Source: Candidatus Hodarchaeota archaeon (GTDB lineage: Archaea; Asgardarchaeota; Lokiarchaeia; Sigyniarchaeales; SOKP01). Taken from it: a stretch of 34,699 nucleotides of DNA. Positions 8,987-13,248 of this stretch are shown piece after piece. Location of the stretch: positions 1 through 34,699 of the forward strand of contig JBHLKM010000026.1 of NCBI GenBank assembly GCA_048886685.1, given 5' to 3'. Position 1 is the first letter of the stretch. Each line of letters opens with the position of its first letter. The notes below the pieces were generated by a model that ran no database searches, was not told where the DNA came from, and worked only from the letters and a program-made list of their open reading frames with translations. Made by a program: the position numbers and the translations under genes.

Positions 8987-9433
8987 TTATTGCAAATTCT
9001 CTCTTATAGATGTAGAACTAATTTTCTTTTTGTTTTTATCTTTAATTATTGGAATCACAATAAGAATGAGCGGTTTTAATCCCATTTCTTCTCTGTTATT
9101 ATTTAGCTTTAAAGCATTTTCATATGTTTCTTGACTTACTATTAATCCCTCATATTCAGGATCTTGAGCATATTTATTCATATCATCCCAATTTTTAATT
9201 TCAACAATGTTAATCCGATTAATATTTGCAAAAGTACTAATATATTCTTTTAAATTTGCTTCTCTTGTGTTATAATCTTCCAATTTTGAAGCAAACTGCT
9301 TGTTCTCTAATAATTTCTGAGTAGTTAATCCAATCTCGATAAATTCAGATATAGATAGAGCAATTTTTAATAAAAATTTATGACCCTCGTGAAGATGATC
9401 GAAAGTCCCCCCTAATCCAACTTTCTTAAGAAT
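8987..9433 (-). CDS. coaD: Phosphopantetheine adenylyltransferase (archaeal/eukaryotic-type PPAT), probable ATT start
   Basis: Extending the supplied 98-aa ORF upstream gives (M)LKKVGLGGTFDHLHEGHKFLL (GGTFDxxHxGH), plus IVSQET, N..R...GLKPL and KISSTSIR. There is an in-frame TAA at 9446-9448 and no ATG/GTG/TTG between it and the HxGH motif. ATT at 9433 follows the SD AAGGTGA. Confidence 0.88.
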   Translation of the reverse strand: MLKKVGLGGTFDHLHEGHKFLLKIALSISEFIEIGLTTQKLLENKQFASKLEDYNTREANLKEYISTFANINRINIVEIKNWDDMNKYAQDPEYEGLIVSQETYENALKLNNNREEMGLKPLILIVIPIIKDKNKKKISSTSIRENLQ

Positions 9434-9465
9434 TAGAGAATCACCTTATCCTTTTTGTTAAATCT

Positions 9466-9906
9466 TTATAATTTTTCCTTAGACTTCTGGATTTGTCTAG
9501 GCTCTTCTGGAGTTTTGCTAGATTCAGTGGGTTTTTTCAATCTAACAGAATAAATTTGTTTGATCTCCATCATATCATCGCATTTACTACATTTATCAAT
9601 TTTTTGAAAAACAAAATCTCCTTTCTCATAATTTCTAACTTTTGTGAGTCCACAAAGATTGCAAATCAATATAGTTAGCGTTTGTCTTATAGGTTCTGAT
9701 GGTCTTTTCTGCATTTGTATCAATGTTGCACCCAAACATATTAGCATAAAACCCATCGTCCACCCTGAAACCGCGTCAGGAAGAATCCCGGTATAAATAA
9801 AAAGTGCCCCTAAAATAATTAAAAATATAGCAAGCAAATTCTTTAGGATGCTTTTAAAAGTAATTCCTTTTTTTAATATTTCTTCGTCGTCTTCTTCTTC
9901 TATCAT
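9466..9906 (-). CDS. Uncharacterised two-TM membrane protein with C-terminal Zn-ribbon
   Basis: Two hydrophobic helices followed by CNLC...GDFVF...CSKC...IY and a charged tail. Confidence 0.75.
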   Translation of the reverse strand: MIEEEDDEEILKKGITFKSILKNLLAIFLIILGALFIYTGILPDAVSGWTMGFMLICLGATLIQMQKRPSEPIRQTLTILICNLCGLTKVRNYEKGDFVFQKIDKCSKCDDMMEIKQIYSVRLKKPTESSKTPEEPRQIQKSKEKL

Positions 9907-11169: not shown

Positions 11170-11376
11170 GCAGTCTACTTTTTATTTCGCTTTTTTTCTT
11201 ATTCCCTTACATTTTAAAAACTCAACTACTTAAATCTTAATAGATTTTTATAATCTCTTAAATAAGAAAATAGTAATTGTTTTATAATTGAGGGAATAAG
11301 ATTAATTAATTTATTTTTTAATAAAATGAACTTAATGTCTAAAATTAGTTATACTAAAATTTGAGGTGTAAAGAAA

Positions 11377-13248
11377 ATTTACGGATATATGGGTAAAATT
11401 ATAAGAGTTGATTTATCTAGTGGACAAATTACTGAAGAATTTCCTGATGAAAACACATTAAAAATGTATTTAGGCGGATCAGGCTTAGCTACAAAATACT
11501 TAATTGATGAAACACCAAAAGGAATTGATCCGTTAGGACCAGAAAATAAACTAATTTTTATGACTGGTCCATTAACAGGAACTCCATCACCTAGTACAGG
11601 AAGATATAGTGTAGTTGCAAAATCACCGCTTACAGGAGTCTGGGGGGAAGCGAATTCAGCGGGTTTTTGGGGTCGAGACCTAAAAAGATCTGGCTTTGAT
11701 GGGGTAATTTTTGAAGGAATTTCTCCCAAACCGGTATATCTTGTCACTGAAGATGGAAAAGCAGAACTCAGAGATGCATCACAGCTCTGGGGCAAAAATA
11801 CTTCAGAAACAACAAGGATTATAAGAGAAGAATTGGGTGAAAAATTCAATGTAGCTTGCATTGGTATCGGAGGAGAAAATTTAGTAAAATATGCTGCTGT
11901 TATGAATGACTGTGATAAACCCAATTACGGACGAGCTGCTGGAAGATGTGGAATGGGCACAGTTATGGGTTCTAAGAAAGTCAAAGCTATAGCATCTAAA
12001 GGTGATGCTAAGATTGAAGTTGCAAATCCAGAGGAATATAAGATAGAAGCTAAACAGAGGTATGATTGGGTAAACCAGAGTATGCTGAAAATGACCCTTG
12101 AAGTGTTTGGAACTGCCACAATGGTGGATTTAGTAAACATTAAGGGTGGCTTGCCTACAAATAATTGGCAGACCGGGGTATTTCCCGCTGCTGATAAAAT
12201 TAATGGTACGGCAATAAACGAAACAATTCTCACAGGACGCAAGCCATGTTTTGCTTGTCCAATAGCATGTGGACGATTGGCTGAAATTAAGGAGGGTAAG
12301 TATAAAAGTACAGGTGAGGGCCCTGAATATGAATCGATTGGAGCACTTGGGACGATGTGCGGAGTTGATAACTTGGAAGCAATTACCTTAGCACATTTTC
12401 TTTGTAATGAATATGGTCTTGATGTAATTTCTGCAGGTAATACGATTGGATTTGCAATGGAATGTTATGAGAAAGGTATTATAACCAACGAAGACACAGG
12501 TGGTTTAGAATTCAATTTCGGTAATGCTGATTTGGTAGTTGATATTATTTCTAAAATAGGTAAAAGAGAAGGAATTGGAGATCTACTTGCTGAAGGAACA
12601 AGGAAAATGGCAGAAAAATTGGGTAAGGATTCTCATAAATTCGCTATGCATGTTAAAGGCTTAGAACTTCCTGCTTATGATAGTCGAGCTGCTAAAATTA
12701 CAGGATTAGCTTATGCTACAGCAAATAGAGGTGGATGTCATATAACGGGTTATATTGAAGGACCAGCATTCTTATCAATGCCATTTATGATTGTAGAAGA
12801 TGCCACAGTTGGAGATGTTCTAACTGAAAATCCAGAAGATACTAAGGTTGTTAAAGATTTCGAAGATGCATTTGGTTTATTTGATGCTATTGGTGGTTGT
12901 AAATTTATGGGTATGGTTTTAACTTCAGAGGATTGGGCAGCACTTATTCAAAAATTATTAGGCTATGAATTTACCAAACAGGATTTTACAAAAATGGGTG
13001 AGAGGTTATATAATCTAGCCAGAGTTTATAATGTAAGAGAAGGAGTTACAAGAGCTGATGACACTCTTCCACCACGCATGTTAGAGGACCCTATGCCCGA
13101 GGGACCGGCTCAGGGAGAAACTGTAAATTTAGATCCTTTATTAGATGCATATTATGAATATCGTGGGTGGGATAAAGAGACGGGGAAACCTACTAAGGAG
13201 AAACTAAAAGAATTAGGGTTGGAATGGGCTATTAAAGAAATATATTAA
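11377..13248 (+). CDS. aor: Tungsten-containing aldehyde:ferredoxin oxidoreductase family protein (probable ATT start at 11377; first ATG at 11389)
   Basis: Motifs GPLTGT, KSPLTG, GRCGMGTVMGSKKVKAI, CFACPIACG (4Fe-4S), GPEYE, GLDVIS, RGGCH and YYEYRGWD. The family-typical N-terminus MYGYxGKI is obtained only from ATT 11377, 8 nt after the SD GAGGTG. Confidence 0.93.
   Translation: MYGYMGKIIRVDLSSGQITEEFPDENTLKMYLGGSGLATKYLIDETPKGIDPLGPENKLIFMTGPLTGTPSPSTGRYSVVAKSPLTGVWGEANSAGFWGRDLKRSGFDGVIFEGISPKPVYLVTEDGKAELRDASQLWGKNTSETTRIIREELGEKFNVACIGIGGENLVKYAAVMNDCDKPNYGRAAGRCGMGTVMGSKKVKAIASKGDAKIEVANPEEYKIEAKQRYDWVNQSMLKMTLEVFGTATMVDLVNIKGGLPTNNWQTGVFPAADKINGTAINETILTGRKPCFACPIACGRLAEIKEGKYKSTGEGPEYESIGALGTMCGVDNLEAITLAHFLCNEYGLDVISAGNTIGFAMECYEKGIITNEDTGGLEFNFGNADLVVDIISKIGKREGIGDLLAEGTRKMAEKLGKDSHKFAMHVKGLELPAYDSRAAKITGLAYATANRGGCHITGYIEGPAFLSMPFMIVEDATVGDVLTENPEDTKVVKDFEDAFGLFDAIGGCKFMGMVLTSEDWAALIQKLLGYEFTKQDFTKMGERLYNLARVYNVREGVTRADDTLPPRMLEDPMPEGPAQGETVNLDPLLDAYYEYRGWDKETGKPTKEKLKELGLEWAIKEIY

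Follow-up and report, generated by a model that had tools for sequence, protein, structure and literature searches.

The window, the whole stretch of 34,699 nt that was analysed, is the complete contig C26 of a draft metagenome-assembled genome (MAG) of 4.4 Mb in 47 contigs, from an Asgard archaeon of the Loki type, with an estimated contamination of 8.4%. On its minus strand an open reading frame spanning 8987-9445 encodes coaD, the archaeal phosphopantetheine adenylyltransferase (PPAT). An in-frame TAA (9446-9448) closes the frame upstream, and from this stop the codons read TAA GGT GAT TCT CTA ATT (9433-9431) CTT AAG AAA GTT GGA TTA, followed by GGG GGG ACT TTC GAT CAT CTT CAC GAG GGT CAT, exactly as the preliminary description of this DNA had given them. 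The latter series is translated as GGTFDHLHEGH (9380-9412), the (H/T)xGH motif of nucleotidyltransferases together with its glycine lead-in. As had been claimed, no ATG, GTG or TTG lies in the coaD frame between the upstream TAA and this motif; the first in-frame canonical start is a TTG at 9281-9283, 50 codons past the ATT, and a start there removes the catalytic motif. A run of 54 codons free of canonical starts is not rare in itself, with a chance of about 13% at the codon usage of this genome. What makes the gap significant is thus not its length but the position of the catalytic motif, ahead of any canonical start, and the conservation across genomes. The proposed initiation codon is the ATT at 9431-9433, four codons downstream of the TAA, and the coding sequence from this ATT to the stop codon (8987-8989) occupies 8987-9433 and counts 148 codons.

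The 3' end of the 16S rRNA (contig C33) reads ...GGATCACCTCCT, so that the Shine-Dalgarno (SD) consensus is its complement, GGAGGTGATCC. Six nucleotides 5' of the ATT lies AGGTGAT (9440-9446), a 7-mer of this consensus and the strongest SD in the window, which places the ATT 8 nt after GGTG, as had been stated. Canonical starts of the genome show an ATG peak at GGTG+5 to +10 and a TTG peak at 7; the coaD spacing falls within the former. The spacings quoted earlier for canonical starts of the window could be confirmed only in part: pheT (TTG 7072) and an acyl-CoA ligase (ATG 13288) lie at GGTG+6, ATG 25741 at GGTG+10 and ATG 20894 at AGGT+9, while ppdK (18063) has GGTA and ATG 25126 has no SD. 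On the same strand, a gene of 146 aa (9466-9906) ends 32 nt before the coaD ATT. It matches no Pfam family; hydrophobic stretches are predicted in its product, which also has a CxxC...CxxC-like segment at the C-terminus. A scan for sigma-70-type promoters and terminators, which is uninformative for an archaeon, gave no terminator-like site between this gene and coaD, and no significant RNA structure is present in the coaD leader (z=-1.1). The arrangement makes coaD a probable internal cistron led by its SD.

The protein read from the ATT belongs to the archaeal PPAT family (NF001985, 128.5 bits for a cut-off of 104; PF01467, 1.5e-14, with a score of 54.8 for a cut-off of 21), its alignment to the family profile beginning at residue 6, and it is the sole PPAT match of a profile search of the 4.4-Mb genome. 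A second intact coaD, which could have left the present copy free to decay, was therefore not found. The ATT-started product has 148 residues, the same length as the solved archaeal PPAT 3DO8 (148 aa), whose residue 2 pairs with residue 4 of CoaD counted from the ATT. Its GGTFDHLHEGH aligns to GGTFEPLHEGH of 3DO8, and the C-terminal ISSTSIRE is present and aligned in the ISSTxIR position. Like other archaeal PPATs (PRK00777/COG1019 type, 3DO8) in family, length, GGTF(D/E)xLHxGH and ISST(S/R)IR, this coaD differs from them in its start codon alone, coaD of outgroup Lokiarchaeal families beginning with ATG or GTG. An intact, single-copy and functional gene, with adenylyl transfer to 4'-phosphopantetheine as its predicted activity, is the best explanation of these features. 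The first residue of the protein would most likely be Met, and the predicted N-terminus is (M)LKKVGLGGTFDHLHE.

Forty related genomes were searched, 23 of the same genus and the others from three other families of the order. Seventeen of the same-genus genomes gave a coaD match, with orthologues 60-91% identical, and aligning their 5' ends showed ATT as the first codon in 17/17 and a canonical start in none, although such counts come from MAGs related to one another and are not independent events. The N-termini follow the pattern I-L-K/N-K/Q-V/I/L-G-L/M-GGTFD. In five of the 17 (L003, L008, L010, L011 and L015), TAA or TAG stands directly 5' of the ATT, which makes an upstream start impossible there. 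The SD spacing is GGTG+8 in 15 genomes and +7 in one, and L012 has a GAGGT-type motif in the same register. Among the 46 residue-invariant columns of the 17 genes only two keep a single codon, and ATT, ATA and ATC all occur in each of the two internal all-Ile columns. Set against this, an ATT kept 17 times out of 17 acts as a start signal and not as an isoleucine codon. Coupled with the five adjacent stops and the fixed SD spacing, it makes AUU initiation at 9433, as the preliminary description had proposed, the only reading that fits the 17 assemblies. In the other families coaD has ATG or GTG starts and different N-terminal tails, with the exception of one genome (G029, of genus g5 in another family), where coaD has no canonical start and ATA is the likeliest start codon; coaD of a further genome, G033, has GTG.

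Public gene calls might suggest that translation starts at another non-canonical codon just downstream of the ATT, for example at Val 9421 or at the Leu codon TTA 9415. Indeed, in a set of 121 close CoaD homologues taken from a large protein collection, the called start is the codon directly preceding GGTFD in 59 cases and that of 'MGL' in 21, and at the Leu/Met position three of the genus loci (L004, L015 and L017) carry ATG or TTG. However, the codon of the window is TTA, and relatives vary freely at these positions (GTT/GTA/ATC/ATT/CTT at the one, TTA/TTG/ATG/CTA at the other). No downstream codon stands at SD spacing, the ATT is the sole invariant codon, and a downstream start would cost the first beta-strand residues, which are matched by the family profile (from residue 6) and by 3DO8 (from residue 2). 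We therefore regard a downstream start as quite improbable.

The remaining public calls show how the ATT start is handled by annotation. About 15 of the 121 homologues are called from assorted upstream canonical codons, and 25 as 'MLKK/MLNK...'; all 25 of these come from NCBI, and among the 121 no 'MLKK...' call comes from a pipeline restricted to ATG/GTG/TTG. In CP070805.1 (GCA_020343655.1, a single contig of 2.27 Mb), the coaD orthologue is annotated by NCBI from ATT. In about 15 of the 121 a canonical codon stands in frame a few codons before ILKK, and a longer CoaD form may exist in some relatives. Public gene calls of this family are thus truncated or inconsistent unless made by PGAP. The expectation that gene callers would truncate such genes holds for callers limited to ATG/GTG/TTG, but not for the NCBI pipeline, which already accepts ATT.

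The wider claim was that this lineage initiates at AUU when a strong SD is given. Sites were collected throughout the genome at which an SD 5-mer precedes a long open frame with an in-frame stop at most 10 codons upstream. At sites without a nearby canonical start, the counts at spacings 4, 7 and 10 were 5, 18 and 4 for ATT, 7, 15 and 1 for ATA, and 1, 5 and 5 for ATC, while the control codons AAA, AAT, TAT, TTA and TTT gave no peak at spacing 7 (Fisher p=2e-4). Since this candidate list was selected for an SD, a dependence on strong SDs is partly built into it. A less circular series was obtained by taking all codons in the first 10 positions after a stop and binning them by their longest upstream SD match. 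The ratio of ATT and ATA to the five AT-only control codons was 0.38 for matches below four bases, 0.38 for 4-mers, 0.49 for 5-mers and 1.27 for matches of at least six bases. In this last bin, 33 ATT and ATA codons stood against 26 control codons, where about 10 would be expected (p=5.6e-6). ATT and ATA are thus enriched as first codons only behind strong SDs, as the claim had foreseen. The excess corresponds to about 40 genes, which sets a lower bound of about 1% for the genome. An estimate independent of the SD, obtained by aligning stop-to-stop ORFs of this genome (G000) with those from 400 kb of a same-genus genome (G005), puts starts at ATT, ATA or ATC (ATH) at 2-4%, a figure that is only rough because conserved 5' UTRs gave many false flags (54/270).

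The candidate list includes textbook N-termini with Ile in place of Met. An ATH codon stands at position 1 of the NCBIfam profile in uS10, NifU, SucC, GdhA, a MoeB/ThiF-like enzyme and digeranylgeranylglycerophospholipid reductase. A 400-kb sample of G005 contained 12 orphan ATH sites next to 28 canonical SD-led starts. In an outgroup (G031, a closed genome of another family with the same GC content), a 400-kb sample was too small to decide and was enlarged to 1.6 Mb. It showed no SD-dependent enrichment over the same four bins (0.33, 0.32, 0.32 and 0.43), with 6 ATT and ATA codons for 14 control codons at SD matches of at least six bases (p=0.38); the direct contrast between G000 and G031 in this bin is only marginally significant (p=0.04). 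G031 also carries a mazF/pemK-like toxin gene (L122-L141, near position 349290 of the 400-kb sample) with an apparent ATT start 7 nt after GGTGA. Isolated ATH starts thus probably exist outside the genus, and the comparison suggests a trait that is strongly developed in this genus or family and not strictly confined to it.

Several other genes carry near-cognate starts that are fixed within the genus. The gene for uS10 (contig C10, 166619-166924, minus strand; locus L031) begins with ATA, preceded by GGTGAG and 6 nt, and has ATA behind GGTGA(G) in 20/20 genus genomes. Two of its 74 residue-invariant columns are codon-invariant, and none of its 10 internal Ile columns. The protein is predicted to begin with (M)QKARIRL.... 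sucC has ATT behind AGGAGGG-type SDs in 8/8 genus genomes. In the window itself, on the plus strand, the gene for aldehyde:ferredoxin oxidoreductase (AOR; start region 11362-11391) has ATT 11377 located 8 nt after GAGGTG in 17/17 same-genus orthologues, with an in-frame TGA four codons upstream. The Y-G-Y codons between this ATT and ATG 11389, the start of the ORF listing, show synonymous changes only. The Pfam domain AFOR_N begins at residue 6 and fits either start. Taken together, these features indicate that AOR very probably starts at ATT 11377 and not at ATG 11389.

The initiation factor aIF1 (SUI1) belongs to the same set. Its gene (contig C33, 8644-8865, minus strand; locus L114:1474-1791) has an ATT that is invariant in 22/22 genus loci, with no canonical start before the zinc-ribbon CPxC; in G005 the 5' part of the gene (L096, contig C1, about 1385000) is a run of N. 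The 5' end reads TAA GAG AGT ATT AAA GAC GAC GAC ATT TGT CC. At the corresponding positions of uS10, sucC, aIF1 and AOR, the outgroup families have ATG, GTG or TTG (TTG, GTG or ATG for aIF1, mostly ATG or GTG for uS10), again with the exception of genus g5. In that genus of another family (L028, L077, L120, L164), uS10 has ATT in G029, and aIF1 has ATA in both G029 and G033. The g5 aIF1 leader contains an out-of-frame ATG and then AAAAAAC just upstream of the ATA.

These genes bear on the question of whether coaD simply has a regulatory AUU of its own, of the infC type, in a lineage with no wider change in start-codon choice. A codon fixed in 17 species and never replaced by ATG is what would be expected of a selected regulatory weak start. 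However, dozens of unrelated genes behave alike and are tied statistically to SD strength, the outgroup shows no such enrichment, and uS10, sucC, aIF1 and AOR contradict a change limited to coaD, which makes this explanation very improbable. Gene-specific tuning and a lineage-wide capacity are compatible with each other; it is only the version restricted to coaD that we reject.

An out-of-frame mini-ORF, GTG ATT CTC TAA (9433-9444), is present at the coaD start site, as had been described. It overlaps the ATT by one base (TAATT), a geometry that would suit termination-reinitiation, and initiation at its GTG 9444 (or coupling through the mini-ORF) with a subsequent frameshift or reinitiation into coaD could be imagined. 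Yet this GTG forms the core of the SD, and no further SD precedes it. Its position relative to the ATT is -11 in most species but -10 in L003, and L012 (GAGGTT) lacks it. The mini-ORF varies in length from 3 to about 21 codons, the loci have no slippery motif in common, and the leader gave no significant fold, as stated above. Since the frame of the GTG and the end of the mini-ORF both vary, programmed frameshifting and termination-reinitiation were rejected for coaD, and such recoding seems to us barely credible. The suggestion that the mini-ORF modulates initiation found no support either, and the comparison points to a by-product of the SD and not to a conserved control element. Finally, the draft and partly contaminated state of the MAG might invite the idea of an ATG misread as ATT in sequencing or assembly, or of a dying coaD pseudogene, but its probability is negligible, as 17 independently assembled genomes share this ATT (the 2.27-Mb single-contig NCBI record among them) and the open frame, above the family cut-off and in single copy, conserves its replacement sites while its synonymous sites are scrambled. 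The pseudogene reading was thus rejected, and the coaD comparison across relatives disposes of sequencing error, pseudogene decay and a downstream start alike.

We are therefore largely confident, from these comparisons, that ATT 9433 is the start of coaD, as one case of a genus-wide, SD-dependent use of AUU, AUA and AUC. The best explanation of the sequence data is that AUU, AUA and some AUC serve as start codons behind strong SDs in at least about 1% of the genes of the genus. Compared with the AUU claim made initially, ATA and ATC appear to be used too, and the putative starts are gene-specific, fixed in the genus and never ATG. The codon of each gene is fixed (as ATT or as ATA) amid scrambled synonymous sites, which argues for selected weak starts and against drift under relaxed fidelity. 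The pattern has the look of weak starts that were tuned, not of lax initiation, and suggests that these genes might be translated at a low or conditional rate.

How such codons might be read was approached through the initiation machinery. One initiator tRNA was found (contig C30, 10443-10546, plus strand). It has the features usual in archaea, namely A1:U72, three G-C pairs (GGG/CCC) in the anticodon stem and a CAU anticodon, and an intron of about 24 nt directly follows its anticodon loop. Acceptor- and anticodon-stem patterns revealed no second initiator-like tRNA with a GAU or UAU anticodon in a tRNA set that is incompletely seen, as ARAGORN and the Rfam tRNA model each recover 31-35 tRNAs in the genome, presumably because of introns. 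A second 'tRNA-Ile(GAU)' reported by ARAGORN on contig C15 looks like a mis-read intron-containing tRNA and was discarded. Given an ordinary initiator tRNA and no alternative to it among the tRNAs recovered, the simplest mechanism would be an SD-anchored AUU or AUA in the P site. The 30S subunit would be positioned by pairing of the SD, AGGTGAU, with the 16S 3' end, and the Met-tRNAi (CAU) would pair with AUU despite the third-position mismatch.

In Sulfolobus, aIF1 prevents the formation of 30S complexes on AUU in vitro (PMC4705826). Loss of aIF1 was considered as a cause of the near-cognate starts and rejected: PF01253 is found in 21/23 genus genomes, and over its full length the protein can be aligned with aIF1 of M. 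jannaschii, with a matching N-terminus and no obvious loop loss. Because aIF1 itself carries an AUU, a feedback similar to that of infC/IF3 or eIF1 is an attractive idea. The factor could limit its own level, and this level could govern the translation of coaD and of the other AUH genes. In such a loop, the AUU of aIF1 would determine the start-codon stringency of the cell, and an AUU/AUA regulon (coaD, uS10, sucC, AOR, gdhA, nifU and others) would rise as aIF1 falls. We hold this to be a tentative and rather unlikely proposal. If true, the loop would be an archaeal counterpart of infC/IF3 and eIF1 autoregulation that arose inside a single Lokiarchaeal family, among close prokaryotic relatives of the eukaryotes.

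The closest parallels come from bacteria, namely infC, pcnB and Deinococcus deserti. According to the passages of PMC4705826 that cite Butler et al. 1987, bacterial infC (IF3) has an AUU start with translational autocontrol, and pcnB has an AUU start as well. As in our genus, the AUU of infC is a conserved near-cognate codon behind an SD and is read with a normal initiator tRNA. coaD resembles starts of this type in lacking a canonical start, in having an SD at canonical spacing and in the excess conservation of its codon. Moreover, infC encodes IF3, and the analogous fidelity factor gene of the genus likewise begins with AUU in 22/22 genomes. In contrast to the bacterial case, the factor here is the archaeal aIF1, an eIF1 homologue unrelated to IF3, and whereas infC and pcnB are one or two regulators, the AUH set runs to dozens of genes, among them those of a ribosomal protein and of metabolic enzymes. 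Eukaryotic eIF1 is autoregulated via a poor initiation context (PMC4705826). It is, like the aIF1 described here, a proofreader with a weak start site of its own, but its weakness lies in the Kozak context of scanned mRNAs, whereas that of aIF1 would lie in the AUU codon of SD-led mRNAs. In Deinococcus deserti, non-canonical initiation codons were shown by N-terminal proteomics (PMC2830850). There too a noticeable set of genes uses starts that callers disallow, which forces re-annotation, but that case is bacterial and proven by peptides, whereas the AUU, AUA and AUC starts behind strong SDs are indicated here by comparison of genomes. A 2020 review of archaeal initiation names only AUG, GUG and UUG as start codons (PMC7531240), and full-text literature searches returned no report of AUU or AUA starts in Asgard or any other archaea.

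These observations have a practical consequence for genome annotation. Callers limited to ATG/GTG/TTG remove the catalytic motif of coaD, or give at least four different N-termini for the family, so that CoA synthesis, like other functions, can be mistaken for defective when pathways are reconstructed from such MAGs. For the biology of these archaea, AUU and AUA apparently fixed on core genes would mean that SD-led archaeal initiation can tolerate, and even select, third-position mismatches. The genus may thus offer a natural system to study how aIF1, the homologue of eIF1, controls the choice of start codons in the organisms most closely related to eukaryotes.
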